Below are positions 6,042 to 46,137 of a stretch of DNA of 64,000 nucleotides, in pieces. Source of the DNA: Fimbriimonadales bacterium (GTDB taxonomy: Bacteria; Armatimonadota; Fimbriimonadia; Fimbriimonadales; ATM1). The DNA is taken from contig JBGTLG010000039.1 of NCBI GenBank assembly GCA_041744215.1, positions 1 through 64,000 on the forward strand, in the 5' to 3' direction. The notes beneath the pieces were generated by a model. That model was not told the origin of the DNA. It saw only the letters and a program-made list of their open reading frames with translations, and made no database searches. The position numbers were made by a program, and so were the translations under genes. Position 1 is the stretch's first letter; each line of letters opens with the position of its first letter.

Positions 6042-6059
6042 CCACAGGAGGTGACCTGC

Positions 6060-7226: not shown

Positions 7227-7527
7227 CCATGCCCACGCTTGGGACAACTTTGGCGAATCGCGGTTCGAGACCGAGATTTTGGGCCACAGCGCGTATCTCA
7301 AGTATCACAAAGAGGACTCCATCATTTCATTGCTGCACACCGAGGTCCCGGAGGAACTTCGGGGCTACGGCCTCGCCAACTCGCTCAGCCGATTTGCGCT
7401 TGAGTACGCGAGAGCAGCCGGCTTGAAGGTGCGAATCATCTGCCCTGCCGTTGGGCGGTTTCTGCGGAAGCATCTCGAATACGCAGATTTGATTGAGCGT
7501 GCAACCAGCCTTGATGCCGTGGACTAG
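7213..7527 (+). CDS. Small GNAT family N-acetyltransferase (YjdJ-like)
   Basis: HTEVPEELRGYGLA and CP motifs. Confidence 0.85.
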   Translation: MKPSDHAHAWDNFGESRFETEILGHSAYLKYHKEDSIISLLHTEVPEELRGYGLANSLSRFALEYARAAGLKVRIICPAVGRFLRKHLEYADLIERATSLDAVD

Positions 7528-7541
7528 ATTTGCGTGGATCG

Positions 7542-7617
7542 TGGTGGGCCCGGCTGGATTCGAACCAGCGACCAAGCGGTTATGAGCCGCCTGCTCTAAC
7601 CACTGAGCTACGGGCCC
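7542..7617 (-). tRNA. tRNA-Ile2 (CAT anticodon, lysidine type; elongator Met not excluded)
   Basis: GGGCCCGTAGCTCAGTGGTTAGAGCAGGCGGCTCATAACCGCTTGGTCGCTGGTTCGAATCCAGCCGGGCCCACCA; cloverleaf, encoded CCA, resembles E. coli ileX. Confidence 0.92.
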
Positions 7618-7641
7618 TTGGGGAACGGGAGGATACCGGTC

Positions 7642-7869
7642 CTACGAATCGAATCGCGAGGAAGGGTCGTCGTCATCACTTATCGGGACGGGGTCATCAC
7701 CGGCCGCGATGAGGCGGATGACATCATCGTGCGCTATCTTTCGGCACTCTTCGATGAGCTGCGCTTCCGGCAGCAGCGACCCTTGCTCACGCGCTTGCTC
7801 AAAATGCGCCCATGCCCTTGCTTCGAGGTCCTCGTCTTCAAAAGGCTCCGTGTAAACGTAGGGGTTCAT
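7642..7869 (-). CDS. Small acidic hypothetical protein
   Basis: 75-aa ORF filling the intergenic gap; no motif recognised. Confidence 0.5.
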   Translation of the reverse strand: MNPYVYTEPFEDEDLEARAWAHFEQAREQGSLLPEAQLIEECRKIAHDDVIRLIAAGDDPVPISDDDDPSSRFDS

Positions 7870-7984
7870 TATTCCTATATGAGGTTACCTCCCCCGCGTT
7901 TTCTGATGATTTCTTCCCAAGCGGGAGTCTTTTACTCCTGTTTCGCGTTATACATCAGAGTCATCCGAATTCAGGAGGAAACTG

Positions 7985-8512
7985 ATGAAGATCCTAGCCG
8001 CCCTCGCCTTGGGCATTTACACAAGCTTTATGGCAACTCCCCAGGAGAACTTGCCAACGGCCGACCAGTATCAAACTGCATGGAATCACGCTCTCGTAAA
8101 CGCGAAAGACAAGCAGGAAGTGCGGATTGTTGACTTCAAAGGCAGATACAAAGCGATCGTCATTGACGCGTTCGCAAGTTGGTGCGGGCCATGCCAAGCC
8201 CTGATCCCCGAAGTTAACGCGATGCACGCACAGTATGGCAAGAAGGGTGTTCTGTTCATCGGATTGAATGTTCAAGACGAATGGGCTGCGATGCAAAAGA
8301 ACATCGATTCGAAGTCGATTCAGTACCTCGTACTGCACGATTCGACTGAGGGTTCTGTGATGATGCAAAACCTCAAGATCCCTGCTATTCCAATGGCAAT
8401 TGTGCTTGATGGCACGACGCTCAAGGAGAAGGGACGATTTTTGGGCAATCGACCGGCTCACAAAGAGGGCCAGCTGAAGCTGCTCGCCGAACTTGGGGTA
8501 GAAGTCGATTAA
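7985..8512 (+). CDS. TlpA-like thioredoxin-fold disulfide reductase, exported
   Basis: ASWCGPC, AIP cis-Pro, signal peptide, SD AGGAGG. Confidence 0.88.
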   Translation: MKILAALALGIYTSFMATPQENLPTADQYQTAWNHALVNAKDKQEVRIVDFKGRYKAIVIDAFASWCGPCQALIPEVNAMHAQYGKKGVLFIGLNVQDEWAAMQKNIDSKSIQYLVLHDSTEGSVMMQNLKIPAIPMAIVLDGTTLKEKGRFLGNRPAHKEGQLKLLAELGVEVD

Positions 8513-8527
8513 CTCATTCATAATATT

Positions 8528-8555
8528 GGAACCTGCGGGGCCTTCCCGCGCGTTT
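8528..8555 (+). promoter_or_regulatory. Candidate ECF-sigma promoter
   Basis: GGAACC-N17-CGTTT. Confidence 0.4.
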
Positions 8556-8614
8556 AGAGACAGTAGCAGAGGGGCATCGCCCCAACGTTTCACAAACCAG
8601 GAGGATTGACACTA

Positions 8615-9184
8615 ATGAAGAAGTTTGCATTACTAGGCGGCGCAGCCGCTGTGCTCACCGTGATCGCGATTGCCGGCAGCTCGGTTGAGTCTGGGCTCGC
8701 CGTTGGCGACACAGTCCCGGCGTTTCACCCTAAGCATGTCGCTGGGCCCCACAAAGGGACTGACGCTTGCCCACCCTGCACCTGGGGCGCGCGCCCTCAG
8801 GTCCAAGTCTGGGTTGGCTACGACAAGTCGGAAAACTCCACCAAGATCGCCAAGGCTTTGGAATCGGCGATGGTGAAGTACGAAGACAAGGAACTCAAGG
8901 CGTTCATGATCCACATGGGACGCTGCGAGGCTTGCACGACTGATATGCCGCCGAAACTCGAGGCGACTGCGAAGGAGTCTGGGTTAGAGAAGGTGGCAGT
9001 TGCCTTTCTTCCGAACGCCGAGGACCCTGCAGCAAAGAGCTATAAGATCAACGGCAGCACGGATGTCAAGAATACGGTTTTCGTCTACTCGAAGAAGCGA
9101 GTCGTCGCCAAATTCGTGAATCTGGTGGCCGATGAAGCGGGCCTCCAAGCACTCAACGAGGCGATCGCTAAGGTCGTCCAGTAG
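8615..9184 (+). CDS. Exported redoxin-like hypothetical protein with two CxxC motifs
   Basis: Signal peptide; GLAVGDTVPAF; CPPC and CEAC; SD GGAGG. Confidence 0.7.
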   Translation: MKKFALLGGAAAVLTVIAIAGSSVESGLAVGDTVPAFHPKHVAGPHKGTDACPPCTWGARPQVQVWVGYDKSENSTKIAKALESAMVKYEDKELKAFMIHMGRCEACTTDMPPKLEATAKESGLEKVAVAFLPNAEDPAAKSYKINGSTDVKNTVFVYSKKRVVAKFVNLVADEAGLQALNEAIAKVVQ

Positions 9185-9199
9185 GTCAGTAAGCTCGCG

Positions 9200-9233
9200 A
9201 AGGGTCGGCCTTTTAGGCCGACCCTTACATTTT
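9200..9233 (+). terminator. Intrinsic terminator
   Basis: AAGGGTCGGCC-TTTTA-GGCCGACCCTT followed by a T-rich tract. Confidence 0.65.
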
Positions 9234-9242
9234 CTCGACCAT

Positions 9243-9275
9243 ACTTCGATATTTCTCGAAATATCGTGGTATACT
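9243..9275 (+). promoter_or_regulatory. ArsR/SmtB-type operator adjoining a -10 box
   Basis: Perfect CGATATTTC-TC-GAAATATCG (11/13 matches when extended to 13-2-13), then TATACT 6 nt before GTG. Confidence 0.75.
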
Positions 9276-9281
9276 GAAAGT

Positions 9282-9647
9282 GTGAAACCGAACGAACGAG
9301 TTTTTCATGCGATGGGAGACGAGACTCGTCTCCGGATCCTGGCTTGCCTGGCAAAGACCGAGGAGTGCTGCCTTGACGTCTGCGCCTGTGAGTTGGTGGA
9401 CTCTCTGGAAGTCAAGCCCTCGACTCTCTCTTCGCACCTGAAGATTCTCCGCGCCGCTGGCCTCGTGCGAATGCGCAAGCAAGGCACTTGGATCTACTAC
9501 CGCCTTAGTGAGGACTTACCCGGGTACCTCGTTGAGGCGATCCGTGCAGCGGAGTTTCCTGAGAAAGACGCGACTCGGCTCGAAGAACGGTTTTCACTGC
9601 GCGTTGACGGTCGCTGCTGCGTATCCGCCGGTGCGCTCCAAAACTAA
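9282..9647 (+). CDS. ArsR/SmtB family metalloregulator
   Basis: FHAMGDETRLRIL, CCLDVCACEL, STLSSHLKILRAAGLV, GTWIYY, C-terminal GRCC. Confidence 0.92.
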   Translation: MKPNERVFHAMGDETRLRILACLAKTEECCLDVCACELVDSLEVKPSTLSSHLKILRAAGLVRMRKQGTWIYYRLSEDLPGYLVEAIRAAEFPEKDATRLEERFSLRVDGRCCVSAGALQN

Positions 9648-9665
9648 AAACAAGGAGGAAATCCG

Positions 9666-9731
9666 ATGAACGACGATAAGAAGGGTTGTTGCGGCTGCTG
9701 CGAAAACTGCGGCTGCTCTGGTTGCTGCTAA
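9666..9731 (+). CDS. 21-aa Cys-rich metallothionein-like peptide MNDDKKGCCGCCENCGCSGCC
   Basis: Strong SD AAGGAGG, 18 nt after the arsR stop, 8 Cys, followed by a hairpin; below ORF-track cutoff. Confidence 0.75.
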   Translation: MNDDKKGCCGCCENCGCSGCC

Positions 9732-9738
9732 GGAGAAA

Positions 9739-9806
9739 GGGCTCGCCAGTCGCGAAGTCGAGCCCCTTCTAAGGCCGGTTCCGCCCGCTCGCATGAGCGG
9801 GCGGAA
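9739..9806. terminator. Two hairpins between convergent genes
   Basis: GGGCTCG...CGAGCCC and TTCCGCCCGCTC-GCAT-GAGCGGGCGGAA. Confidence 0.6.
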
Positions 9807-9815
9807 TCTTGCGTC

Positions 9816-10091
9816 CTACGAATCTGTCTTTTTGGTGGACGATTTCTTGGCCGCCGTCTTCCTAGGCGCCGCGGGCTTCTTTACAGCTGCTGGCTTTTTG
9901 GACTCGGCAATGTTGGGTTTCGCTGGAGGAGCAGGTTGCTCAGCCTTCACGGGCTTCGGAGCCGCTTTCTTTGCCTTGGCCTCCGGCGGTGGACCGTCAG
10001 GAAGTATGAAGACGGTCTTCATGCGACCGCGCATTCGTTGCGCCGTTGTTCGTTGGCGCTTGGGTTTGCGTCCGCTTCGTTCAATTCCCAT
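9816..10091 (-). CDS. Small basic Lys/Ala/Pro-rich (histone H1-like tail) protein
   Basis: MGIERSGRKPKRQR...KKAAPKP...KKPAA repeats; SD GAGAGG. Confidence 0.7.
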   Translation of the reverse strand: MGIERSGRKPKRQRTTAQRMRGRMKTVFILPDGPPPEAKAKKAAPKPVKAEQPAPPAKPNIAESKKPAAVKKPAAPRKTAAKKSSTKKTDS

Positions 10092-10093
10092 TT

Positions 10094-10190
10094 CAGTTGA
10101 CCTCTCAAGAAACAGCGCGCCAGGCCTTCCAGGCGGGCGCGCGGAGCCGAGAGGATACCTCAACTGTCGGTCGACTGGCTTCTGCGAGGT
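10094..10190 (-). promoter_or_regulatory. Structured 5' leader sequestering the SD
   Basis: Nested complementarities CAGTTGA/TCAACTG, CCTCTC/GAGAGG and GCGCGCC/GGCGCGC. Confidence 0.5.
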
Positions 10191-10264
10191 AATCCACTAT
10201 AATGAGCCCGCGTGGAACGCAAACACCCATCCGTCCGTTCCTAAGTGTGAATTTGAGGTGAAAA

Positions 10265-11215
10265 GTGGGCCCAGCTGAGATTGCCAAACATGCGCAGGCT
10301 ATTTGCGATGAAGTCGAAACAGTCATCTTAGGGAAACGAGATACCGTCGAGAAGGCAGTCCTGACCTTACTTTGCAACGGTCACCTCCTATTGGAGGACG
10401 TGCCAGGGGTTGGGAAAACGATGCTTGCCAAGGTGCTTGCCCGTACGATCGGGGGCGAGTTCCGGCGTATCCAGTTCACACCCGATCTGTTGCCCGCAGA
10501 CATTACTGGGTCAAGCATATTCAACCAAATGGCGATGGAGTTTGAATTCAAGGCAGGTCCAATCTTTGGGAACATCGTCCTTGCCGACGAGATTAACCGC
10601 GCGACCCCCAAAACTCAGTCTGCCCTGCTCGAGGCGATGGAAGAAAGGCAGGTGACAACGGACGGCATCACGCGGATGCTGCCTTCACCGTTCTTTGTCA
10701 TCGCGACACAAAACAACGTTGAACTGGTCGGTACGTACCCTCTGCCCGAGGCGCAACTCGACCGATTCTTTGCCAAGTTGTCTCTTGGGTATCCGGACCG
10801 AGCGGTCGAGGCCGACATCCTGAGGGATCAGCAGAAGGTTCACCCAATCGAGAATGCCCGCCAGATCGTCTCGCCGGCAGATTTAATCGAGCTCCAGAAG
10901 GGAGTTCGCGATGTGTACGTGCACGCGAGTCTTCGGGATTACATCGTGGACATCGTCAACGCGACTCGTTTTTCCAATCAGATCATCCTCGGCGCAAGTC
11001 CACGCGGATCACTGCTTTTGATGCACGCGGCACAGGCACACGCCGCGATGGATGGCGTCGAGTTTGTCCGACCGGACGACGTCAAGGCAATGGCTCCATC
11101 GGTGCTATCCCATCGAATTGTCCCAAGAGCAGATCTTCGCTCCCGCGGCGTCAGCGTTGAAGAGCTGATCGAGTCAATCGTGGATTCGATTCGTGCGCCT
11201 GTACCCGTTGCATAA
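10265..11215 (+). CDS. MoxR family AAA+ ATPase
   Basis: EDVPGVGKT, RIQFTPDLLPADITG, DEINRATPKTQSALLEAM, LPEAQLDRF. Confidence 0.95.
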   Translation: MGPAEIAKHAQAICDEVETVILGKRDTVEKAVLTLLCNGHLLLEDVPGVGKTMLAKVLARTIGGEFRRIQFTPDLLPADITGSSIFNQMAMEFEFKAGPIFGNIVLADEINRATPKTQSALLEAMEERQVTTDGITRMLPSPFFVIATQNNVELVGTYPLPEAQLDRFFAKLSLGYPDRAVEADILRDQQKVHPIENARQIVSPADLIELQKGVRDVYVHASLRDYIVDIVNATRFSNQIILGASPRGSLLLMHAAQAHAAMDGVEFVRPDDVKAMAPSVLSHRIVPRADLRSRGVSVEELIESIVDSIRAPVPVA

Positions 11216-12433
11216 ATGCGTCGCTACACAGTCCTGACTATCTCGACCTCCGGCGTCTTTCTTATGATCGTCGGCGTGCTAACGAACACGCAGACATTGT
11301 TTTACATGAGCACCGTCATGATCCTGATGCTGATTGTGATGCGGCTACAGGCGGGGCTTGCAACCAGGGGCCTTCGATTCGAAAGAATTGCACCAACTAC
11401 GATTGTCGCTGGCGAACTTATCACGATGCGGATCAGGGTTTGGTCTTCGATCCGGCTACGAAGGCCGCTCCTCTTCATTATCGATGACCTGCCTCCTGGA
11501 CTATTACATCAGGCGGACATGCGGCCTTTGCCAGTCGCGCCAGATTTTGAACAGGCTGTTGAGACCCGCTACGAATTGCGCCCGCACAAACGAGGCATTT
11601 TTCGATGGTCTACCATTCGCGTATCTAGCACTGATTCATTAGGCATAATCAGAGTTGAGAAGTCGTATGAGACCGAGCCTATCGAGTTGGTAGTCTATCC
11701 GTCCCAGATTCCTTTTGGGCTCGATCTGGTAGCTCTAAGTGGATGGGGCGCGAACCAAGCCGATCAAGGTCGAAACCGAGGCCAGGGAATTGAACCGAGA
11801 GGAGTCCGCGAGTTTCGCTCTGGAGACTCTTTGCGATTCGTTCATTGGAGGACTACTGCGCGCACCGGTCAATTGCAGGTTAAGGAGTTTGAAACGGGTT
11901 TCAATACGAACGTGACGATTCTGATTCAACAAACAGCTGGAAGCGAAGCGGGGAAAGGCGCCTACACGACACTCGAAGCAATGTGTGGCCATGCAGCATA
12001 CTTAGCGGATGTTCTCTTGCAGCGGGGGAGCCCAGTGAAGTTGCCGAATCTCGAACCTGCCGGCGCCGAACCTGCGAATTCTGCAGGTATTCGGTACGAG
12101 CAGATAGCAGAGGCACTGGCGGCGGCAGCAGCAGACCGCTCGGAGCCATTTGCCTTCGAGGTCGACTCCCTTATTGAGACTCTGGGACCTTCGTCGACTG
12201 TGGTTCTCTTCATGGCGGCAGCGGAGCCGGGACTCGCAGAGTCTATTCGAAGGCTTGCTGGGGTGGCCTCGGTCGTCGCACTGGTATACAGCCCAGATCA
12301 CTTCGCCGGCGACAAGATTGATGTCCGGCTTAGGCCGTCGATTGACCCTGACTTTCTAGCGAAAATCGCCGCTCCAACCGTGGCGATAAGACTGATGCAA
12401 AACCCCTATGCAAGCGACACACAAGCGGCTTAG
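11216..12433 (+). CDS. DUF58 domain protein
   Basis: REFRSGDSLRFVHWRTTAR, VKEFE; follows moxR. Confidence 0.9.
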   Translation: MRRYTVLTISTSGVFLMIVGVLTNTQTLFYMSTVMILMLIVMRLQAGLATRGLRFERIAPTTIVAGELITMRIRVWSSIRLRRPLLFIIDDLPPGLLHQADMRPLPVAPDFEQAVETRYELRPHKRGIFRWSTIRVSSTDSLGIIRVEKSYETEPIELVVYPSQIPFGLDLVALSGWGANQADQGRNRGQGIEPRGVREFRSGDSLRFVHWRTTARTGQLQVKEFETGFNTNVTILIQQTAGSEAGKGAYTTLEAMCGHAAYLADVLLQRGSPVKLPNLEPAGAEPANSAGIRYEQIAEALAAAAADRSEPFAFEVDSLIETLGPSSTVVLFMAAAEPGLAESIRRLAGVASVVALVYSPDHFAGDKIDVRLRPSIDPDFLAKIAAPTVAIRLMQNPYASDTQAA

Positions 12434-14480
12434 TGCAGAGCAGCAACTAGTTCACTTGGAGGCGAGTGCGCTCGATTACATGGTTCTGGCTGCCGCCGGG
12501 ATTGTCCCGTTGTTTCTTGCTGGCACCGCAATTCAAAAGCCGAATATCGGGATTGCCTTTTCGATCTTGTATGCCCTCGGCCTGCTCACGTCATTCGTCA
12601 TTCGTCGAAGTTTCCCACCGAACAAGCTGTTTCACCATTGCGCGTGGCTACAGTTGATCGTAGCGTTGTTTATCTCATTCAACCTTGGCAATCTGAACGG
12701 CATGTTGCCAGACGGCGGATTTGACCCACGGCTTTTCGTTCCGGCATACCTCTGCTTCCTAATGTGTCTCGGAAGCTTTTTCTATTGGTCTGACTCTCCT
12801 ATGATGTTCATGACCGTGCCGGGCGTTGCTCTCTTTGGCATCCTCAGCTGGCTTGAAACGAGCGGGTTCTTTGAGGTGTCGCTCATTCTTTTTATGGCAA
12901 GTGTCGCCGTGCTCTTGACCCGGCTGCACCTTCGCTCGATGTATGCAAGCGCGAGAGCAGCGGGTGCAACCGACTTGCCTGAGTTGCACAGAGGACCTTG
13001 GCGAGCCGTTGCCGGCCCATTTCTTGCGATTCTCACAATTCTTGCAGTTGCGGGATTCTCTTGGTTTGTCGCGCCAATGCTCGGCTCTGCGGCAAGGGCA
13101 GCGGTCGGCAATCCGACGCTGAACTTCACGCCACCTACACCGCGAGCAACACAGGGTTCAGGAGTCGTCGCGCAACGCACTATAGGTAACGGTCCTTCGT
13201 CCAGTAGCAATCGAGAGATCGTCAAAGTCAAGGCTGACATCCTTCCACCGTACGTTCGCACCACAAGTTACGACAGCTACCGACGGACAGGGTGGAATGA
13301 AGCGCCGAGCGTTCGAGAGGTTGAGCCCTCTGCTAACCGGCCCGCCACGAATCTGCGCAATCCACGGGTGTATACGTTCGAGTTACCGCGTCAAATCGCA
13401 CGCGGCCGGATCGTCGACATGTTTGTGCGATCCGCTTCCGGCGGGCATACCTATGCTCCTGTTCCTGGCCCGGTCATCCAATTCGAGTATGAAGGCAACA
13501 TCTCTATCGACCGGCGGCAGTTCATTGTGCTTAGTGACGGCTTCCCCGTGGACAAACAGTTCTTTGTTCGCGCGCAGTGGCAGATGCCCACGGCGGAGAT
13601 GCTTCGCGCAGCGACGCCGGCAAGCGAGCGGTCGCCAACATTCTCCCCAGGCTTCGATGTTATCGATCCACGCGTGATTGCGCAAGCGCGAGAATTAGTC
13701 GTTGGGCGGCAAACTGATTACGACGTGATTCTCGCAATGATGGACTTCATTGCGGACCGTTGCAGATACAATCTAAATGCCGAGGCGATCACAGGAGACA
13801 AAGATCGGGTCGCCGAGTTCTTGTTCGAGACAAGGGAAGGCTACTGCGATCTGTTTGCGAGCTCGCTCGCGGTCATGCTGCGGTCCGTCGGAATCAATGC
13901 GCGTGTCGTCATTGGATTCCGCATCACAGACGCTCCTGACGCCGAAGGTTGGGTCACTATTCGCGACCGAAACGCCCATATGTGGACAGAGGTTTACTTT
14001 GAGGAGTACGGCTGGATCCCGTTTGATGTAACGGACATGGCTCAGGCCGTCCCCGGCGGCGAGTTGGGAACTTTGCTCGACGAGGAAGAAGGGCTGGCTG
14101 GAGTCTCGTGGGCGATGAAAGCGGCCGGCATAATCTTCGGATCTGCAGCGCTGATACTTATCATCGCTTTCGCAGTCGGGGCCTTACGAAGTCGCAACTC
14201 AATAACTGGAACGTACCGCAAGCTGCGCCCGAGCTATCTCGTTTTCTTACGGGTCATAGCAAAGCAACTGAAGAGACCGAAGATGCCCTCGGAAACGACG
14301 CGTCAGTTCGCGATTGCTTACCGCGACGCTGCTGGCAACGGCGAGATCGTTCTTGACATAGCCAATAAGTTTGAGTCTGCTTTCTACGCAGCGGATGAGC
14401 CGACACACGAACAAATCGAGACAATTCGAAGTAGCGTTGACAAGTTGGTCGCCGCAGTGAGGAACGGAAATGGCCGTTAG
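12408..14480 (+). CDS. Membrane transglutaminase-like protein (TgpA-like)
   Basis: Multiple TMs; GYCDLFASS, HMWTEVY, FDVT Cys-His-Asp triad. Confidence 0.9.
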   Translation: MQATHKRLSAEQQLVHLEASALDYMVLAAAGIVPLFLAGTAIQKPNIGIAFSILYALGLLTSFVIRRSFPPNKLFHHCAWLQLIVALFISFNLGNLNGMLPDGGFDPRLFVPAYLCFLMCLGSFFYWSDSPMMFMTVPGVALFGILSWLETSGFFEVSLILFMASVAVLLTRLHLRSMYASARAAGATDLPELHRGPWRAVAGPFLAILTILAVAGFSWFVAPMLGSAARAAVGNPTLNFTPPTPRATQGSGVVAQRTIGNGPSSSSNREIVKVKADILPPYVRTTSYDSYRRTGWNEAPSVREVEPSANRPATNLRNPRVYTFELPRQIARGRIVDMFVRSASGGHTYAPVPGPVIQFEYEGNISIDRRQFIVLSDGFPVDKQFFVRAQWQMPTAEMLRAATPASERSPTFSPGFDVIDPRVIAQARELVVGRQTDYDVILAMMDFIADRCRYNLNAEAITGDKDRVAEFLFETREGYCDLFASSLAVMLRSVGINARVVIGFRITDAPDAEGWVTIRDRNAHMWTEVYFEEYGWIPFDVTDMAQAVPGGELGTLLDEEEGLAGVSWAMKAAGIIFGSAALILIIAFAVGALRSRNSITGTYRKLRPSYLVFLRVIAKQLKRPKMPSETTRQFAIAYRDAAGNGEIVLDIANKFESAFYAADEPTHEQIETIRSSVDKLVAAVRNGNGR

Positions 14481-15510
14481 TGGCGTATCGCCATCTGTCG
14501 TCGCTATCTCAGGCTCCGACCCACTTCTTATAATCGAAGCTCTGCAGGCTTCGCTCGCCGAAGCAGGCATTGATCCTGTCGACTCATTCGATCATGTCGA
14601 TCTTGACGGTATCGAAACTTCGGCTGCAGAGATACTGCAATCGGCAACGACGATTCCCTTCTTGTCGCCACGACGATCCGTCGTTGTGCGGCGTGCGGAT
14701 CGCCTTGGGGAAGCGGATGTGGACGCCCTTTCCACAGCACTACCGACGATTCCCGCGAGCGGGTTGATTGTCTTTGTCTTTGAGCCGCTCGGAGATGCTG
14801 CGAAAGGTGCTGCACTAAAATCAGCTGCGAAGAAGGCGGGCCGACTTATCGAAGTCAAATCACCAGACCGCTCGGTGATCATTACGGAATTGAAGAAACG
14901 TGCAGGTGAGGCTGGCTTGTTGTTCGACAGAGACGCGGCCGAGAAGATGTGTGACCTTGTTGGATCGGATCTCTCAGAGGCTGTGTCTGAACTTGGCAAG
15001 ATAATCGCGGCATGTTCTTCCACAGGAAAGGTCACTGTTGACGACGTTAAGCAGATCGTCATTCCAAGCCAGGAATACCGTGTGTTTTTGTTGCTTGACG
15101 CCGTTTGCGAGGGCCAACTCGGCCCCGCGCTAACTCAATTGGGAAGGCTACTCAGCGCGATGCCTAAGGCCGAGGATGCTGCCATGCGAAACGTGCTTCC
15201 TCAGATGCATAAGCAACTCCTTAACATCTTTCAGGCGCGAGCGTTGCTGGACGAGCGCGTCAGTCTTGACTCGCCGGATGCCAAGCGGTACCTGTCCGAA
15301 GCCTATAGTCTGGCCAACGCAAACGACTTTCCGCGGAAGAAGGCCACGGCTTTCGCGAGAAGACTCAGTCTGGCTCAGGTCGCAGCCCTTTTGCGCCTTG
15401 TACTTGAGACCGACATGCGACTCAAGGGACAGTTGCCGCAAGCTACCGCCGAGGAGACGCTGGAGAGAATGCTTGCCGAAATGTGTCTCATAGTGCGGGA
15501 TCAAACGTGA
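14470..15510 (+). CDS. holA: DNA polymerase III delta subunit
   Basis: PFLSPRRSVVV, ELGKI, VFLLLDAV, ETDMRLKG pattern; 346 aa. Confidence 0.8.
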   Translation: MAVSGVSPSVVAISGSDPLLIIEALQASLAEAGIDPVDSFDHVDLDGIETSAAEILQSATTIPFLSPRRSVVVRRADRLGEADVDALSTALPTIPASGLIVFVFEPLGDAAKGAALKSAAKKAGRLIEVKSPDRSVIITELKKRAGEAGLLFDRDAAEKMCDLVGSDLSEAVSELGKIIAACSSTGKVTVDDVKQIVIPSQEYRVFLLLDAVCEGQLGPALTQLGRLLSAMPKAEDAAMRNVLPQMHKQLLNIFQARALLDERVSLDSPDAKRYLSEAYSLANANDFPRKKATAFARRLSLAQVAALLRLVLETDMRLKGQLPQATAEETLERMLAEMCLIVRDQT

Positions 15511-27368: not shown

Positions 27369-27638
27369 GCGGCGTCGGCGATACTACCGAATCCTTCCTG
27401 ATGGTATAATCCGCCCGTGCTCAAAATCGCCCCGCCTAACTCCAGGGCGATCGCGGTTGCCCAGCGCACGTGGGGATGAACGAGATCATTTGCATGCAGG
27501 CCCGCCTAACACGCCAGTTTCAATTGCCCACCAGTATGGCCAGGATGGCCCCCGACCAACATTTTTGCCTCAAATCTTGAATCCACTAGCTGCCAGAAGG
27601 TACGCTTATGGTTTGTCGCTCACCTGCCGGAGGGTTGA

Positions 27639-30600
27639 ATGAAAGAGATCAAGCACGCCTCGAGTCCGCTAAGCCAGGTTCTCGAGGTCCCGAACCTCAT
27701 AGAGGTTCAATTGAACTCATACAAGCAGTTTCTTGAACAAGGACTTCCCGAACTTCTAAAAAGCTTCTCCCCGATCAAAGATTTCACCGGGTCGAACTAC
27801 ATAGAGTTTCTCGATTTCTCGCTCGGAGAGCCTAAGTACGACATCGACGACTGTCGCGACCGCGACGTTACGTTTGAGGCGCCCATCAAGGTGCGGGTCC
27901 GACTAGGCGGCCGAGACCGGGAGGTCATCGAGTCGGAGGTCTACCTCGGAGACTTGCCCCTGATGACGAACCAAGGGACGTTCATCATCAATGGACGTGA
28001 AAGAGTCATCGTCTCCCAACTAAGCCGTAGCCCCGGCGTTTACTTCTTTGACGAGCCCCAGCAGGCGACAAAGTGGGAACTCCGCCACGTCCTCATGCAT
28101 CGGCTTCCCCTCCGTGCGGAGGTGCTCCCAAACCAAGGCAAGTGGCTTGAGGTCAGCGAAGCCGAACCGAATTTCGTCCTGTTCGCACCGCTGAATCAGA
28201 GCAAAAAGATCCCCGTAACCCAGTTGCTCAAGGTTTTGTCCGCGTTCGAGACGGCGCGCGTCCCGACGCGATTGCTGGTTGAGAACGCAGTGAACAAGCG
28301 GCTAGCTGAGCCTCTTGCCGACCCGGAGACCGGCGAGGTCCTCGGCGACGCCGAAACTCTGCTTACGCAAGAATTCATTGACAGCCTTCCAAAGAGCGTC
28401 CGGGGCACCAAGGCGGTGGTTCACACCCCCGTCGGATCGAACGAGGAGCTCGTTACCTCTTTCGGTGTCAAACACGTGCTGAAGTCCCCGAAAGAAGGCG
28501 ACCTGATCGGAAAGCGCGCGACAGGGGACATCAAGGATGGAGACGAGGTCGTAATCGCGAAATCTGGCCGGATTGATCGAGACGTGGCAAAGAAGATCGC
28601 TGCGATGGGCCTGAAGCGACTTGAGGTCATTGAGGTCAACCCATTTATTGACGCGACTCTCGAACACGACACTACGGATTCGACCAAAACCGCCCTCAAA
28701 GACCTGCATAGAAAGTTGCGTCCAGGAGAGTCACCTGACGAGGAGAACGCTAAGTCACAGTTCTATTCCCTGTTCCTGGACCCTAGAAACTATGATTTAG
28801 GCCGAGTCGGGCGACACCAGATGAATCGCCGCCTCGGGATCGAACTCCCGGACACGGCGCGCAACATAACCATCGAAGATGTGGTTGCGATGATCAATCG
28901 ACTCGGGCTACTGCTCGAAGGCGAGATCGGCGGCGACAACATCGACCACCTTCAAAACAAGCGCATCAAATCGATCGGCGAATTGCTTCTCAATCAGATG
29001 CGTGTCGGCCTCAGCCGGATGGAGAAGGTAGCTCGAGAGAGAATGACAAGCGCCGAGCCAGAGAACTTGCTGCCCGGGATCATTCTGAGCGTGAAGCCAG
29101 TTACGGCAAGCATCCGCAGCTTCTTCAGCAGTAGTCACCTGAGCACGTTCATGGATCAGACCAACCCGCTAAGCGAACTGTCAAACAAGCGGAGACTCTC
29201 GACTCTGCCGGATCGCAGACCGTCCGCGTCTGGGCGCGCGGGAGTTGTCGACGCGCAACGTGAAGTTCAGCCAAGCGAATATGGCCGAATCTGCCCCATC
29301 GAGACGCCGGAAGGGCCCAACGTAGGACTTATGAAACAGCTCAGCGTATACGCAAAGATCGATGAAGACGGTTTCTTGCACGCGCCTTTCCGAACCGTCA
29401 AGAACGGCAAGGTTACTGACGAACTCAGCTATCGCGTATCAGGAGACGAGGACGACAAAAAAGTAGCCCCGCCGGATACACCTCTTGGCCCCAACGGCGA
29501 AATCTTGGACGATCCTGTTATGGTTCGTTTCCGAGGCGAATTCCCCGAAGTTCCTCGCAACGACGTTGAGCTTATGGACGCTTCGCCGCTCATCTTTTCT
29601 GTCGCAGCTTCCTGTGTTCCATTCCTGAATCACGACGACGGGGCACGGGCCCTGATGGGCGCGAATATGCAGCGCCAGGCAGTGCCCTTGCTCCGTTCAG
29701 AGGGGGCCTTCGTTAGCACCGGTTATGAAGAGAGAATCGCCCGCGATACAGGGACGACCATCCTCGCGCACCGGTCGGGCATTGTGAGAAACGTCACGGC
29801 GTTGTCGATCCAGATTGAAGCCGACGACGACGGCACTCTCGATGTGTACCCTCTGGAGCACCTGCGCCAGTCGAACAAGTCTACGTGCTTCACGCACAGA
29901 CCGCAAGTGTTTCCGGACGAGCGGGTCACAAAGGGTCAGCCAATCGCCGATGGCCCATCCTGTCACGACGGAAAACTTGCCCTTGGCAAGAACCTCGTTG
30001 TCGCGTTCATGCCGTGGCGTGGCTACAACTTCGAAGACGCGATTTTGGTGAGCGAGCGACTGGTCAAGGAAGACACGTTTACGTCCATCCATATCGAACG
30101 ATACGACACCGAAGCGGTCGACACAAAGCTTGGGCCGGAAGAAATCACCCGAGATATTCCGAACGTCGGTGAAGAGGCTTTAAAGGATCTTGACGAAAGT
30201 GGCATCGTCCGGATCGGAGCCGACGTGCGTCCTCTCGACATCCTCGTAGGAAAGGTCGCTCCGAAGGGTCAGGTTGAACTAACGGCCGAAGAGCGACTCA
30301 TCATCGCGATCTTCGGGAAGAAAGCGGAAGAAACTCGCGACGTATCGTTGCGAGTCCCACACGGCGAGCAAGGCACAGTCATCGACGTGAAGGTATTCAG
30401 CCGCTACAAGTACCGCGACAAGGCGACCGGCAAGATTTTCCACGAGTCGAAGAAGCGCGAGCACATGGTGAGTGAGATAACAGGCGGCGATCTGGAGCAG
30501 ATTCCAGGTGATGAGCTACCTGCCGGAACGAACATGACTGTCCAGGTGCATGTCGCGCAAAAGCGCAAGATTACGGTCGGAGACAAGATGGCGGGGCGGC

Positions 30601-31655
30601 ACGGAAACAAGGGTGTCATTTCGCGGATCGTCGCTGAGGAAGATATGCCTTTCCTCGCCGATGGACGCCCGGTGGACATCGTGCTGAACCCACTCGGCGT
30701 ACCGAGCCGATTGAATGACGGTCAGATGCTTGAGTCGCTGCTCGGATTGGCGGGAGCGAAGCTTGGCATTCGCTTCATCTGCCCTGCGTTCGAGGGCTCA
30801 AGGCCTGAGCAGGTGATGGCGGAGATGCGGCGCATCGCCGAACAAACTCGCCGAGACGTTTTGCAGGCATACGTAAACTCGGAACTGGGCCTCAATCTCA
30901 GTTTCAAGCGAGGTGTGGCTGTACAAGAGATGCTGAATGAGATCGAGGACGCGCTTCGCAAGCTTGGGAAGACCCGGCTCGAGGCGGTATCGAGGCTCGT
31001 AGCCGCCGAACCTGCGATAAGCGTCGCAGACATGGATCCTGAAGCCGAGTTCGTTGTTGAAGACAATGAACCCGCGCATAAGGCTCCTGATCCAGTGTAC
31101 ATATCGATCCTCGATGCGATCCGACAACGTGTTTGGGTTCGCGCCGGAATTGATGAGACAACCGGAAAGAGTCTGTTACGCGATGGTTGGTCTGGCGACT
31201 TCTTGGAGTTCCCCGTCTCTGTTGGCGTGATGTATATGTTCAAGCTTGAGCACCTCGCCGAAGAGAAGATTCACGCTCGGAGCATTGGCCCATATTCTCT
31301 GGTAACTCAGCAGCCGCTTGGCGGAAAAGCCCAGTTCGGCGGCCAGCGCTTCGGAGAAATGGAAGTCTGGGCGCTCGAAGCGTATGGCGCGGCGAATACA
31401 TTGCAGGAGATCATCACGATCAAGTCTGACGATGTGATGGGCAGAGTCAAAACGTACGAGAGCATCGTGCGTGGAGAAACAATGCTCGAGCCAGGGATAC
31501 CAGAATCGTTCAAGATCCTCGTCAACGAGCTAAGGAGCCTCGGCTTGCGCGTCACAGTTGAGGACGCAAACAACCGGGAAATCAGCCTCCGAGACCTAGA
31601 CGAGCATTCGCAGGGCGACGACATGAAGCTCGCGAGATCAGTCGGCTTCTTTTGA
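27639..31655 (+). CDS. rpoB: RNA polymerase beta subunit (divergent)
   Basis: CPIETPEG, RALMGANMQRQ, GDKMAGRHGNKG, GGQRFGEMEVWALEAYG. Confidence 0.98.
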   Translation: MKEIKHASSPLSQVLEVPNLIEVQLNSYKQFLEQGLPELLKSFSPIKDFTGSNYIEFLDFSLGEPKYDIDDCRDRDVTFEAPIKVRVRLGGRDREVIESEVYLGDLPLMTNQGTFIINGRERVIVSQLSRSPGVYFFDEPQQATKWELRHVLMHRLPLRAEVLPNQGKWLEVSEAEPNFVLFAPLNQSKKIPVTQLLKVLSAFETARVPTRLLVENAVNKRLAEPLADPETGEVLGDAETLLTQEFIDSLPKSVRGTKAVVHTPVGSNEELVTSFGVKHVLKSPKEGDLIGKRATGDIKDGDEVVIAKSGRIDRDVAKKIAAMGLKRLEVIEVNPFIDATLEHDTTDSTKTALKDLHRKLRPGESPDEENAKSQFYSLFLDPRNYDLGRVGRHQMNRRLGIELPDTARNITIEDVVAMINRLGLLLEGEIGGDNIDHLQNKRIKSIGELLLNQMRVGLSRMEKVARERMTSAEPENLLPGIILSVKPVTASIRSFFSSSHLSTFMDQTNPLSELSNKRRLSTLPDRRPSASGRAGVVDAQREVQPSEYGRICPIETPEGPNVGLMKQLSVYAKIDEDGFLHAPFRTVKNGKVTDELSYRVSGDEDDKKVAPPDTPLGPNGEILDDPVMVRFRGEFPEVPRNDVELMDASPLIFSVAASCVPFLNHDDGARALMGANMQRQAVPLLRSEGAFVSTGYEERIARDTGTTILAHRSGIVRNVTALSIQIEADDDGTLDVYPLEHLRQSNKSTCFTHRPQVFPDERVTKGQPIADGPSCHDGKLALGKNLVVAFMPWRGYNFEDAILVSERLVKEDTFTSIHIERYDTEAVDTKLGPEEITRDIPNVGEEALKDLDESGIVRIGADVRPLDILVGKVAPKGQVELTAEERLIIAIFGKKAEETRDVSLRVPHGEQGTVIDVKVFSRYKYRDKATGKIFHESKKREHMVSEITGGDLEQIPGDELPAGTNMTVQVHVAQKRKITVGDKMAGRHGNKGVISRIVAEEDMPFLADGRPVDIVLNPLGVPSRLNDGQMLESLLGLAGAKLGIRFICPAFEGSRPEQVMAEMRRIAEQTRRDVLQAYVNSELGLNLSFKRGVAVQEMLNEIEDALRKLGKTRLEAVSRLVAAEPAISVADMDPEAEFVVEDNEPAHKAPDPVYISILDAIRQRVWVRAGIDETTGKSLLRDGWSGDFLEFPVSVGVMYMFKLEHLAEEKIHARSIGPYSLVTQQPLGGKAQFGGQRFGEMEVWALEAYGAANTLQEIITIKSDDVMGRVKTYESIVRGETMLEPGIPESFKILVNELRSLGLRVTVEDANNREISLRDLDEHSQGDDMKLARSVGFF

Positions 31656-31704
31656 TCAAAACAGGGCATAGCCCACAAAACAACTCAGGAGACTCAAAAC
31701 AACA

Positions 31705-32001
31705 ATGGCAAGTGTAAGATTCGTATTCGACAGCGGCGACGTAATCATCCCCGCAGAGACAGACCGCAGCGCAAAGCTGATCATGTCAGGCTTCCGGCGA
31801 AAGATGGAGGCCGGCGATGAGATGATCGATGTCAAAGGAAAGGACGGCGTTCGGCTAGTTAATGCGGGCAAAGTGAACTACATCGAAATCGTCGGCGGCT
31901 CAGCCCGCAGCAGCAAGCCCGCGGCACGCGGAGGCGCAACGGCGAAGAAGACAGTTCGTAAGGCGAAGACCACTCCCGCGCGCGGTCGTAAGCGACGATA
32001 A
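31705..32001 (+). CDS. Small hypothetical protein with basic tail between rpoB and rpoC
   Basis: 98-aa ORF with AGGAG upstream; ~63-aa globular part plus K/R/A-rich tail. Confidence 0.8.
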   Translation: MASVRFVFDSGDVIIPAETDRSAKLIMSGFRRKMEAGDEMIDVKGKDGVRLVNAGKVNYIEIVGGSARSSKPAARGGATAKKTVRKAKTTPARGRKRR

Positions 32002-32046
32002 CAGCCACCGCCGTATTGGCAACCAAACTGGAGTTGAAATCACAGC

Positions 32047-35000
32047 ATGCCCGACGTAACTCTTTTTGAAAAAATCCGTGTGGGAATTGCGAGCCCGGAA
32101 GACGTTCTCGCATGGTCTCATGGCGAAGTAAAGAAGCCCGAGACCATCAACTATAGAACGTTCAAGCCGGAGCGTGATGGACTTTTCTGCGAGCGGATTT
32201 TTGGACCGGTCAAAGACTGGGAGTGCCACTGCGGTCGATACAAGAAGGTCAAGTACAAGGGCATCGTGTGTGAGAGGTGTGGCGTCGAAGTCACCCGGTC
32301 GCGCGTGCGCCGCGAGAGGATGGGTCACATCGAACTCGCGGCGCCCGTGTGTCACATTTGGTTTTTGAAGGGCGTCCCTTCGCCGGTTGCGCTTCTCCTA
32401 AACATCGGACCACGCGATCTTGAAAAGGTCGTCTACTTTGGGTCGTTCATCGTCATCGACCTTGACAAAGTGGGCCTCGACGAGGGCCGGTCACAGATTG
32501 AAGAACTAGTCGAGCTCGAAAAGTCCGCGCTCGAGCAAAGCATGGCTGAGCTTGAGGAAGAGATTCGCGACGCATTCGCCAGCGAGTTGGAGGAGAACAA
32601 GGACGAGTATGACGAGTCAATCATCAAGGATCGCACGAAAGCGGTCAATGATCGGATAAAGGCCGAGCAGCGAGACTCCCAAGATCGCGTCAAAGAGATG
32701 GATGTCGCGCTGGAAGTACTGTATAAGCTTGAGCAGAATCAACTGATCGAGGAAGACAAGTTCCGAGCTGTCGATCGGATGTTGAATGCTGTGTCCCGTC
32801 GAAGCGGCAAGCAGTACAACCAGATGCTTAAAGCTGGCATCGGTGCGGCTGCGATCAAGGAGCTTCTGCTCCGGGTCAACCTCGACTCGACTTCCAAGGA
32901 GCTTCGCGCAGGCATCATGCGGAGCCAAGGACCAAAGCGCGCGCGCATGATTAAGCGCCTCGAAATTGTCGAAGCGTTTATCAACTCGAAGACTAAGCCC
33001 GAGTGGATGGTCCTAGAGGTAATGCCCGTGATCTCGCCTGAGCTACGGCCCATGGTTCAGCTTGATGGCGGCCGGTTCGCGACATCCGATCTCAACGATC
33101 TCTACCGACGCATCATCAATCGGAACAATCGTCTGCGCAAGATTATAGAAATCCGGGCTCCTGAATCAATCATCAATCATGAGAAGCGTTTGCTGCAAGA
33201 AGCGGTAGACGCACTTGTCGATAATGGCCGTCGGTCCCGACCGGTGGTCGGCAGCAACAATCGTGCTTTGAAGTCCTTGAGCGACATGCTTAAAGGCAAA
33301 GAGGGACGGTTCCGAAAGAACTTGCTTGGAAAGCGTGTGGACTATTCTGGAAGAGCTGTCATTGTGGTGGGTCCTCACCTCAAGCTCCATCAATGCGGTT
33401 TGCCGAAAGAAATGGCGCTTGAGCTGTTCAAACCCTACGTGATGAAGGCGCTCGTGGACCAAAAGCTCACGCAGAACATCAAGACTGCGAAGCGCATGAT
33501 CGACCGAATGCACCCGGCAGTGTGGGATGCTCTTGAGGAAGTCATCAAAGATCACCCGGTGCTGCTTAACCGCGCTCCAACGCTCCACCGATTCGGCATT
33601 CAAGCCTTCGAACCGATCCTCGTCGACGGCAAGGCGATCCAGGTGCATCCACTCGTGTGTCCGCCCTTCAATGCGGATTTTGACGGTGACCAGATGGCCG
33701 TGCACGTTCCTCTCAGCGCTGCCGCACAGGCCGAAGCACGCATCCTAATGCTGTCGAGCAATAACCTGTTCTCGCCAGCGGATGGACAGCCGACGATGGC
33801 ACCGGTACAGGACATCATTCTTGGATCGTACGCACTAACTGCTCTCAACCGTAAAGCGCTTACGCGCTTCGAAGCGGAGACAGCTGCGCATCGGAAGGAT
33901 CCCGAAAAAGTGCGCGCACCGATGACGTTCTCGTCCCCTGACGAGGCAATCCTCCTTGCAACGCACCCAGATGCCGCGGTTCGGATTCCACTGAACGACC
34001 CCGTTTTCGTCCGTGTCCGACGTCCATCCGGATTAGCAAATGAAGCGGGCGAGTTCGAAGAGTGGGAGACTGTCGTGCGACAAATGACGCCCGGTCAGTT
34101 GATCTTCCACGAAGTGCTCCCGTACCCAGTAAAGCACCACGATGATTGGATTGGAGTCGAGTTCACAAAACGAAACCTGACTCGGCTCATCACTCACGTA
34201 CGCAACGCAACTTCAACGCAAAAGACTGTCGAGATGTTGGATCAAATCAAGGAGCTCGGATTCGAGTGGGCGACACGATACGGATTGACAATCGCGCTTT
34301 CGGACGTAGACCCGCGCTCCGCTCCAACTTCCGACCTATCGCTTGTCAATGAAATGGCACGGCGCGAAATCGCAGGTCAGGCCATCAGCCATGATATCGA
34401 GAAAGATTTTGAAACTGCAGGACGATTGAAGGGCCTGATTGAGGCTAAGATCGGCGAAGCTAAAAAGGCGACCACCGAAGTTCGAAAGCACTATCAGCTT
34501 GGCACGATGGCGACGAACGAGCGAGACCGAAAGCTACAAACGATTTGGCAGGGCGCGTTCGGAGCGCTGTCCGACACTATTGTTACGGAGATGGGGCAAT
34601 TCAACCCGCTTCGAATGATGGTCGACTCAGGCGCAAGGGGATCGCGTGAGCAGTTGGTTCAGCTGATGGCAACGCGCGGAATGTTCCGTAACAACTTCAA
34701 TCAGCCGATCACGGACATTGTAGGTGGCAACGGGTTGTTCGATGGCTCACGTGTGTTCGAGTACTTCGTGTCGATGTTCGGTGCCCGAAAGGGTGTCACG
34801 GATACCGCGCTCTTGATGGGTTACTCCGGATTCATCGCCCGCCGTCTCGTTGATGTGTCACACGACATCGTGATCAAAGCTGAGGACTGTGGCACCACCC
34901 AGGCCATCTACGTCGCGAAGATTATCAAAGAAGGGGACGTCGTTGAGCAACTCAGCATTCGATGCAAGGGTCGAACGTCGATTGAACGAGTTACATTGCC

Positions 35001-36762
35001 TGGCAGCAAGGAAGAAGTCGTGCTCTGCGAAGCTGGTGACGCCTTTGGCGACAAGGGTGCGGCGCTCTTAGACGAAGCCGACGCTCTCTATTACAAGCTT
35101 CGAAGCGATGCTCAAGAGGCGAAAGACGTCGATAAGGCGACCGAGAAAGTCGAGGCCGACTTCCGCAAACACGGCTTCCGCATTGGTGAGCACGGCGAGT
35201 TGCAGGTATCAATCAGGAGTCCGCTTACGTGCGATCTCGACAGCGGCATCTGTTCCAAGTGCTATGGCTGGGACCTCTCGACCAAGAAGTTCGCCGAGGT
35301 TGGCCTTGCAGTTGGCGTCATCGCAGGTGAAACGATGTCTGAACCTCTGTCTCAGTTGACGATGAGAACATTCCACCACGGCGGCGTTGCGACGGGCACG
35401 GTCCTTACTGGATACAACCAAGCTGGGCGAATGTACGGCACACTACACCAAGAGCTCAAGGTTGACCTCAAGACTGATGAGCTTGACGTGCATGAGATGC
35501 CGGACTTTATTGGTGAGCAGCGCGGCTTGCTCGATGAACTCACGGGGAAGGCCGAGCGGCTCAAGGCCGAAGCAGAGAAGCCGACAAAGAAGACTAAAAA
35601 GTCCTTGACGCCTCCTCCGCGAACCACAGCGAACCGTCAACTCGCTCGGGAGTTGGTGGAGCACTCGTTCTATCACTACGTAGGCATACCCTTCGTAGAG
35701 AGGCTTCTTGAAGCTCGTCGCGCGCCCAAGGGTGAGGCAGTCGTGTCTCGCTACGATGGTGTGGTCGACACAATCAAGGTCGGTCAGCTTGGTCGATGGA
35801 TTGTGATCCGGGCTATCGTCACCCCTGGGGAGCACGACATCGCTGGTAAGACGATCGCTGAGCGGGTCCTCCATCCAGAAACGAAAGAGACACTTATCGA
35901 AGCTGGCACAGAGATCAACAAGGCAGCTACCGACAAGCTTGCGAAGCACGGCGTGGAGAAGCTCACGATTTTCGAAGTGATCCTTCTTCCGAAGCGTCGA
36001 ATCCTTCTGGTTGAGACAGGCGACAAAGTCAAAGCGGGCGATCCTCTCACCCAGGGTCCGCTCGATCTTGGCAGCCTCCTCGAGTTCCGAGGAGTTCGCG
36101 CGGTGCAAGAATATCTGGTAAGTGAACTTCAGTCGATTTACAAGTCGAATGGCGTTAGCATCAACGACCGTCACTTGGAGGTCATCTGTCGCCAGATGCT
36201 GCGAAAGGTTCGCATAAAGGAAGGCGGTGACTCAAAGTTCTTGCCCGGCCAAATCATAGATCGATTCGCTTTCCGAAGAGAGAACGAACGTCTTCAGCAG
36301 ATGATTGCAGCGAAAGAAGAAGTCGAGTATGAGGACATTGAAACCAGCGACATGAAGAAACGGCTTCCGATTCCTGCCACGGCTGATGCAGTCATTCAGG
36401 GCATCACCGAAGCCGCCCTAACGACTGAGTCATTCCTATCGGCGGCCTCCGCGCAGAAGACTGTTCGTGTGCTTACAGACGCGGCCGTCAAGGGGCGCAC
36501 AGACGATCTAGTGGGCCTAAAGGAAAACGTGATCATTGGGCGGCTGATCCCCGCCGGATCAGGATTCCCGGCATACCGAAACATCGCCGTCAAGACGACG
36601 CGAGAGCCGGTGTGGGCAAAGGCTCCTATCACGGCACTCGCGAGTATGCAAGACCGCGAGGATGTGGAGGAGATCGAAGAATTCGACGAGAGCGATATCG
36701 GAGATATCCGATCGCTCGCTGAGAGCCTCGGCGCAGAACGCGTCGACGAAGCAGACGTTTAG
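32047..36762 (+). CDS. rpoC: RNA polymerase beta' subunit (divergent)
   Basis: N-terminal Zn ribbon, [30 protein letters not shown]. Confidence 0.98.
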
Positions 36763-44296: not shown

Positions 44297-44824
44297 ATGA
44301 CCACACTTCTCGCTACCCTCATCCTCTCGACCGGATTTGCGCCGGCCCAGGATCCAAACCCGCAGGTTTCCTTGACAATTCAGTCACGGGGAGAGATGGT
44401 CATTGAGCTTTTTCCGCAAGACGCGCCGAAAACTGTGGCCCAGTTTCTCAAACTGGTCAACAGTGGCTTCTACAACGGTGTTCTGTTTCACAGGGTTGAG
44501 AACTACCCCCGCCCGTTTATCGTGGTGACTGGTGATCCGTTGACCAAAACCCTTCCGCTGACCGACCCGCGAATTGGGACCGGGGGGAGCGGCAACACGC
44601 TTCTCTTCGAAAGCAACAAGCGCTCCTTTGCCAATGGAACCGTCGGGCTTGCTCGCGACCAGAAGGATAAGAACAGCGGAGACAGCCAGTTCTTCATCTG
44701 CAACGGCCCGCAGAAGTTTCTTGACGGCTCATACGTCGCGTTCGGGCAAGTCGTAAAGGGCATTGAGATTATCCCCAACATTGCGTTGGGTGATAAGGTT
44801 ACGTCGGTACGCCAAACTCGCTGA
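44297..44824 (+). CDS. Exported cyclophilin-type peptidylprolyl isomerase
   Basis: APKTV, FYNGVLFHRV, SQFFI, LDGSYVAFGQV. Confidence 0.92.
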   Translation: MTTLLATLILSTGFAPAQDPNPQVSLTIQSRGEMVIELFPQDAPKTVAQFLKLVNSGFYNGVLFHRVENYPRPFIVVTGDPLTKTLPLTDPRIGTGGSGNTLLFESNKRSFANGTVGLARDQKDKNSGDSQFFICNGPQKFLDGSYVAFGQVVKGIEIIPNIALGDKVTSVRQTR

Positions 44825-44879
44825 TCAAGGCACTGCCCGATGGGATGCGGCCCCGGCACCCAGGTACCCTTCGGATCAG

Positions 44880-46131: not shown

Positions 46132-46137
46132 GAGACT

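Follow-up and report, generated by a model that had tools for sequence, protein, structure and literature searches.

A small conserved gene between rpoB and rpoC of Fimbriimonadales encodes a candidate nucleic-acid-binding protein

Small, lineage-restricted proteins of bacterial RNA polymerase (RNAP) include omega, delta and epsilon of Firmicutes and RbpA of Actinobacteria, none of which, to our knowledge, is encoded between rpoB and rpoC. In almost all bacteria, as far as we know, the two genes directly follow each other or have even been fused, and our literature search, with most subscription journals outside its coverage, found no paper on a conserved gene between them. A small folded domain and a flexible tail are combined in CarD of Myxococcus xanthus, which consists, according to PMC4374960, of a structured domain that binds the RNAP beta subunit and an unfolded tail of AT-hooks with the core RGRP; among the references of that paper is also work that deals with HMGA-like and H1-like domains as equivalents. 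Another small protein, Rv3208A (TB9.4) of Mycobacterium tuberculosis, is described in PMC5108770 as a DUF3107 (PF11305) protein and is reported there to be needed for growth of that species. A preprint proposes that DUF3107 is a permuted Hfq, a circular rearrangement in which the helix is preceded by two strands (10.1101/026195). No functional data on DUF3107 orthologues (Rv3208A/TB9.4, SCO5169, ML0814) were found in the literature.

Here we describe a gene, called X below, that separates rpoB from rpoC in the window, the whole stretch of 64,000 nucleotides of Fimbriimonadales DNA that was analysed. The features of the locus are as follows.

27369..27638, + strand: leader/promoter region, 270 nt, with the divergently oriented proline dehydrogenase gene on one side and rpoB on the other
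27639..31655, + strand: rpoB, beta subunit, 1338 aa (TIGR02013, 1385.5 bits against a cut-off of 801)
31656..31704, + strand: rpoB-X spacer, 49 nt, with the Shine-Dalgarno sequence AGGAG at 31687-31691, 13 nt from the start codon (ATG) of X
31705..32001, + strand: X, ATG start, TAA stop, 98 aa
31705..31893, + strand: core of X, residues 1-63, predicted beta-beta-alpha-beta-beta-beta fold (AlphaFold2, alignment A4, Foldseek)
31894..32001, + strand: tail of X, residues 64-98 and stop, a Gly-rich linker and a predicted disordered basic tail ending in RGRKRR
32002..32046, + strand: X-rpoC spacer, 45 nt, with GGAG at 32030-32033, 13 nt before the ATG of rpoC
32047..36762, + strand: rpoC, beta' subunit, 1571 aa (TIGR02386, 1375.2 bits against a cut-off of 963.5)

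The 98-aa open reading frame, its place on the + strand 49 nt 3' of rpoB and 45 nt 5' of rpoC, and the protein sequence quoted for it in a preliminary description of this DNA were all confirmed. The absence of an obvious terminator, also claimed there, was borne out by a consensus scan, which located no terminator-like site on the + strand from 31600 to 32100 or on that strand between the three genes. A genome scan with one N-terminal peptide pattern, M[AP][SQ]V[RK]FVF[DQ], whose scope excludes relatives starting with MAK, MAN or MAT, returned five stretches, of which two were confirmed as further X loci.

L001, Fimbriimonadales MAG, JAHCHL010000011.1: rpoB 5926..9948, X 10001..10285, rpoC 10331..15046
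L002, uncultured Fimbriimonadales, CAZSPF010000003.1: rpoB 5927..8347 and 8470..9915, X 10001..10300, rpoC 10329..15053

The order rpoB, X, rpoC on one strand was thus found in all three loci with readable context (the window, L001 and L002), which span G+C contents of 0.425 to 0.553 and beta' identities down to 70%. Identity between the window and L001 was 90.2% for rpoB, 88.2% for rpoC, 74.5% for X and 71.7% for proline dehydrogenase; between the window and L002 it was 69.9% for rpoC and 42.1% for X (core 49.2%), rpoB being broken in L002. The divergence of X thus outpaces that of beta and beta' and is similar to that of proline dehydrogenase. The rpoB of L002 is split into open reading frames at 5927-8347 and 8470-9915, with a run of N at 9853-9862, which has the look of an error of assembly or masking and not of a biological feature.

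By open reading frame coordinates, the spacers in the three loci measure 28-52 nt, each with a GGAG/GGAA motif, and the arrangement reads as a three-gene transcription unit whose members are probably co-transcribed. Genes on the opposite strand bound the unit on both sides in the window, L001 and L002. The upstream boundary is proline dehydrogenase in the window and in L001, whereas in L002 a SpoIID-domain gene comes first and proline dehydrogenase after it; the downstream boundary is an uncharacterised gene together with an OGG-type glycosylase gene. The rplKAJL genes, the usual upstream neighbours of rpoB, are absent from that position in the window (26433-27638); the upstream arrangement is the same in L001 and nearly so in L002. 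The rpoB start codon is preceded at 5 nt by GGAGG, and a consensus scan of the + strand of the leader (27369..27638) reported no sigma-70-like site.

The rpoB-X spacer contains a small GC hairpin at approximately 31664-31674, and a motif of the X-rpoC spacer, TGGAGTTGAA..ACAGCATG, is also present in L001. A possible stem would pair the last rpoB codons (31648-31655) with positions 31685-31692 in the Shine-Dalgarno region of X, the partners being UCUUUUGA / UCUUCU at the end of rpoB and UCAGGAGA / AGGAGA at the Shine-Dalgarno sequence; its counterpart in L001 would join approximately 9941-9946 with 9981-9986. Such a stem would couple translation of X to rpoB termination; against shuffled sequences it scored z 0.04 in the window, no better than the shuffles, and z -1.94 in L001, and its sequence was not retained in L002.

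Several other genes of the window were recognised along the way. Two paralogous genes for glucose/sorbosone dehydrogenase (GSDH), encoding 575 and 585 aa, stand in tandem directly upstream of the proline dehydrogenase gene (22962-26436, + strand). A MoxR-type AAA ATPase, a DUF58 protein and a transglutaminase-like protein are encoded in a row at 10265-14480 (+ strand), which we take to be a common three-gene module. The gene at 44763-46049 (+ strand) encodes a 428-aa protein with matches to families of bacterial archaeo-eukaryotic release factors (baeRF family 3, E 1.7e-42) and is adjoined by two tRNA genes at 46060-46223 (- strand). The protein encoded at the edge of the window (2-379, - strand) carries an RNA recognition motif of the eukaryotic type (RRM_1, E 6.3e-13).

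The length of X is by itself not significant. When the 391-nt interval from rpoB to rpoC was shuffled, 457 of 2000 shuffles stayed open for at least 98 codons, as would be expected if X were a chance open reading frame in an unusually long spacer, and 72 open reading frames of at least 50 aa occur in a 12-kb region. Comparison of the window with L001 spoke against chance: dN/dS was 0.127 at a dS of 1.23 (42.0 synonymous and 30.0 non-synonymous differences), the core giving 0.113 and the tail 0.157 when taken separately, and the 63 core codons differed 11, 5 and 32 times at codon positions 1, 2 and 3. Frame 1 was stop-free in both genomes with 45 of 62 residues identical; frames 2 and 3, with 29/62 and 28/62, contained stops in both. 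Furthermore, the 17 homologous clusters described below share the start MA.V(R/K)F, and the core is confidently modelled by AlphaFold2. X is therefore a genuine gene because it is conserved (dN/dS 0.13, third-position bias) and not because of the length of its frame, with purifying selection on both core and tail, and the conservation data have in practice already refuted the chance reading, to which we attach next to no credence.

The G+C content of X (0.58) fits that of its neighbours (approximately 0.55), and tblastn found no relative of X in phage and plasmid collections; X is therefore not a mobile insert. Two further candidates were rejected. X and rpoC share a reading frame, but read-through from one into the other would meet, besides the TAA, a TGA of that frame in the 45-nt spacer. 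X as a split-off piece of beta or beta' was discarded because each subunit can be aligned over its whole length with solved polymerases.

The protein divides into a folded core and a flexible basic tail. Two AlphaFold2 runs, based on 6 and 22 aligned sequences, gave the same result, with pLDDT of approximately 88-90 for residues 1-60 and below 50 from about residue 68. In the prediction, two strands (residues 3-8 and 12-16) come first; a helix (20-36) and three more strands (40-44, 49-53, 57-63) follow. The preliminary description of a core of about 63 residues as beta-helix-beta-beta-like was thus approximately right, the predicted order being beta-beta-alpha-beta-beta-beta. In the 22 sequences of alignment A4, M1, V4, F6, F8, D20, R21, A23, L25, R31, V43, G48 and N53 of the core are invariant, as is K86 of the tail. 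Cores of the family are near neutral (pI 5.1-9.4).

The tail of X in the window carries 13 Lys and Arg and no Asp or Glu in 35 residues (approximately 40% Lys/Arg). Across the 22 sequences, tails of 24-98 aa follow a Gly-rich linker, contain 9-31 Lys and Arg and 0-2 Asp and Glu, and have a basic cluster (for example RKRR, KRRR or KKRK) at their end, differing among relatives in length and in the type of repeat. One relative (P0014) has a 61-aa tail of AKKAAPKK-type repeats, which we take to be histone-H1-like, and another (P0023) has a 98-aa tail with three RRGRP and two RGRK motifs; X of the window has one RGRK and no RGRP. The Pfam AT_hook model (PF02178) matched one of the 22 members, at an E of only 3.3. 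In composition the tail resembles a non-specific nucleic-acid binder, and X would probably bind nucleic acid through it.

Foldseek searches of the PDB with both AlphaFold2 models identified Rv3208A/DUF3107 as the best solved look-alike of the core. The five best matches were all Rv3208A chains, from an octamer (7RUS) and a hexadecamer (7RUR), with E 1.9e-3 to 2.6e-2, probability 1.00, target-normalised TM 0.57-0.70 and rmsd 2.4-3.0 A over 63-69 columns at 10-15% identity. Hfq/Sm chains ranked next, with E 0.3-1.3 and target TM 0.41-0.51. In the ESM Atlas, the whole protein matched one viral cluster at 0.77, which was uninformative, and the core matched small hypothetical proteins of Actinomycetota and Dormiibacterota at 0.81-0.83, with UPF0367 at rank 14 and a DUF3107 cluster at rank 21 (0.81), all of which serve as leads only. 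The BFVD search returned many uncharacterised phage proteins of 60-70 aa (E 2e-3 to 8e-2) with no transferable function.

A word-indexed search with the single sequence gave three proteins at E ≤ 0.01, the query included, among 15 candidates, and an exhaustive HMMER search of 1.84 billion representatives gave three at E ≤ 0.001. A profile of six sequences recovered 17 clusters among 4396 candidates (5.8 billion proteins), the weakest at E 2.9e-21, and the family is sharply bounded because nothing lies between that value and E 10. Cluster members all have 87-125 aa, cluster look-ups adding one member of 162 aa. Wherever a member is named, the name is 'hypothetical protein' and the source is a MAG of Fimbriimonadales or of Armatimonadota/Armatimonadetes, Fimbriimonadales being an order within Armatimonadota. 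Precomputed Pfam domains were absent from all members, and scans of X against Pfam, NCBIfam and PHROGs assigned no family, the only match being a sub-threshold one to Dodecin (PF07311; 13.2 bits against a cut-off of 22.5) that covers residues 58-86, mostly disordered tail, and is seen in one of 22 members. Fused or longer forms were absent among 8000 candidates (weak evidence), and PDB sequence searches, with the single sequence and with the six-sequence profile, yielded only low-complexity matches to ribosomal P2 and a BMC-H fusion.

The polymerase encoded on either side of X had been regarded in the preliminary description as divergent, and this did not hold. Both subunits score far above their equivalog cut-offs and can be aligned along their full length with bacterial polymerases of solved structure, the best of these matching throughout the conserved core; beta contains the Pfam Rpb2 domains 1, 2, 3, 45, 6 and 7, and beta' contains Rpb1 domains 1-5 and the NADFDGD motif. 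As judged from sequence, the polymerase is canonical and differs only by insertions of the usual lineage-specific kind. Rpb1 domain 5 of beta' occupies residues 903-1396 (494 residues) for 254 profile positions, an insertion of approximately 240 aa. Residues 1-754 of beta' match about 736 residues of beta' chains of approximately 1316 aa (e.g., 5uh5_D), and most of the excess length is therefore in the C-terminal half.

Our tentatively favoured reading, with a probability of roughly 0.4, is that X is a Fimbriimonadales-restricted, nucleic-acid-binding accessory factor acting at the interface of polymerase and nucleic acid, presumably in contact with RNAP. X, beta and beta' would be produced from one mRNA, and X would be made in step with both. 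The core, of the DUF3107/Rv3208A type, would engage in protein contacts, either by docking on the polymerase or by self-assembly, and the tail, rich in Lys, Arg, Ala and Gly and of the H1/AT-hook type, would bind DNA or nascent RNA without sequence specificity, a design that may be likened to that of Myxococcus CarD, with its RNAP-binding domain and HMGA/H1-like tail. The direct basis for this reading is the reality of the gene, its conservation, its operon position, its fold class and the composition of its tail, and its genomic context is that of three family members. The earlier proposal of a co-expressed accessory subunit, assembly factor or nucleic-acid-binding partner of a divergent RNAP is partly supported, by a real and conserved gene, the order rpoB-X-rpoC in three of three loci and a tail of the nucleic-acid-binder type, and loses the divergence of the enzyme. 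Because omega is reported in Fimbriimonas ginsengisoli together with alpha, beta and beta' (PMC4072686), X would not be a simple replacement of omega.

Some evidence counts against the favoured reading. X had no match to known RNAP subunit or factor families (omega, delta, epsilon and others) in Pfam or NCBIfam, none to chains of solved RNAP complexes in the PDB sequence searches, and no solved chain of a small RNAP subunit or factor was among the best 50 Foldseek matches. Rv3208A/DUF3107 has no known link to transcription, and its octamer and hexadecamer crystals would be as compatible with an oligomeric binder that is free as with an X bound to the polymerase. X also diverges faster than beta and beta' (74.5% vs 88-90%; 42% vs 70%). 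Finally, in the gene table of F. ginsengisoli, which is the type species of its class, rpoB has the tag OP10G_3470 and rpoC the tag OP10G_3475, with four locus tags between them, including the COG5285 dioxygenase-type gene OP10G_3472 (PMC4072686, gene table). In that species, genes without an evident link to transcription thus seem, from the table, to lie between rpoB and rpoC; the junction therefore appears to tolerate unrelated genes, and location there is alone no proof of a polymerase function.

The accessory-factor reading has as its main rival a nucleoid-associated protein or RNA chaperone that is oligomeric and free, linked to the polymerase through its synthesis only. Such a protein would form a ring or cage, DUF3107-like or of a permuted Sm-like kind, from which basic tails radiate, and would coat or bridge DNA or RNA while not attached to RNAP. 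This rival would account for the best structural match of both models being Rv3208A in octameric and hexadecameric form (E 2e-3 to 3e-2), for Hfq/Sm chains coming next (E 0.3-1.3), for the H1-like and AT-hook-like tails, which are typical of chromatin-type binders, and for the divergence of X at the rate of an ordinary housekeeping enzyme rather than of RNAP, and it agrees with the argument of the preprint that DUF3107 is a permuted Hfq (10.1101/026195). However, none of the 22 members matched the DUF3107 or Hfq Pfam models at E ≤ 10, and a free oligomer leaves unexplained why X was retained exactly between rpoB and rpoC in three diverged genomes; we consider it possible but somewhat unlikely. 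X could also be a passenger with a function outside transcription, for example a ribosome- or stress-related one, that came to lie in a permissive intergenic site and stays only since its removal would be costly. The F. ginsengisoli table, with its four tags and one COG5285-type gene, the narrowness of the family (17 clusters), and the want of any family or functional annotation (all named members being 'hypothetical protein') would be consistent with this, although synteny maintained across 70% beta' identity and a 13-point G+C difference, purifying selection on core and tail, and a nucleic-acid-binding-type tail that suits the neighbourhood make it fairly improbable.

The chance open reading frame and an assembly chaperone are, like the passenger gene, minor rivals. 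A chaperone of the beta-beta' interface would hold the C-terminus of beta or the N-terminus of beta' until the two join, as might be guessed from the position of X between genes whose products must pair, a matter of gene order only; a strongly basic, disordered tail would be unexpected in such a factor, and omega, the usual assembly aid, is reported in F. ginsengisoli (PMC4072686), which renders this reading highly improbable. A bolder form of the favoured reading would make X a stoichiometric RNAP subunit, its core docking at the beta/beta' junction and its tail gripping DNA or nascent RNA, and would by extension regard DUF3107-like proteins of Actinomycetota and related Terrabacteria, including Rv3208A, as transcription-associated nucleic-acid binders; we regard this as improbable.

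If X binds the polymerase, it would be a new lineage-specific subunit from the barely studied phylum Armatimonadota and would offer a first functional clue to the DUF3107-type fold. If it is a free chromatin-like or RNA-chaperone protein, it would represent a new bacterial family with H1/AT-hook-type tails whose dosage is tied to RNAP. Fimbriimonas ginsengisoli is a cultured relative, and the question could thus be addressed at the bench.

Among the described systems, DUF3107 is the nearest in predicted fold. The core of X and Rv3208A, which at approximately 65-75 aa is similar in size, share two strands, a helix and then further strands, as the preprint describes that fold (10.1101/026195). 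PF11305 matched none of the 22 X-family members at E ≤ 10 (none of six in an earlier run), and the X-family profile did not retrieve Rv3208A from the PDB sequences. Because the fold resembles Rv3208A and a link at the sequence level is undetectable, we file X under a predicted 'DUF3107-like fold' and do not place it in DUF3107, which is described as an actinobacterial signature protein, whereas named members of the X family come from Fimbriimonadales/Armatimonadota. Hfq/Sm proteins and X are both small beta-rich domains able to carry flexible tails, but the Hfq/Sm fold has an N-terminal helix followed by five bent strands and X is predicted to have two strands before the helix; Hfq/LSM Pfam models matched none of the 22 members at E ≤ 10.

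CarD is closest in overall design, with a small folded protein-binding domain followed by an unfolded basic tail (PMC4374960), and its RGRP AT-hooks compare with the three RRGRP motifs of P0023 and the AKKAAPKK repeats of P0014. The folds differ, with CarD_CdnL_TRCF matching none of the 22 members at E ≤ 10; X is without an acidic segment, and in the window it has RGRK rather than RGRP. Binding to RNAP is demonstrated for CarD and putative for X. X also resembles omega, delta, epsilon and RbpA, which act with the polymerase, in being a small protein restricted to a single lineage.
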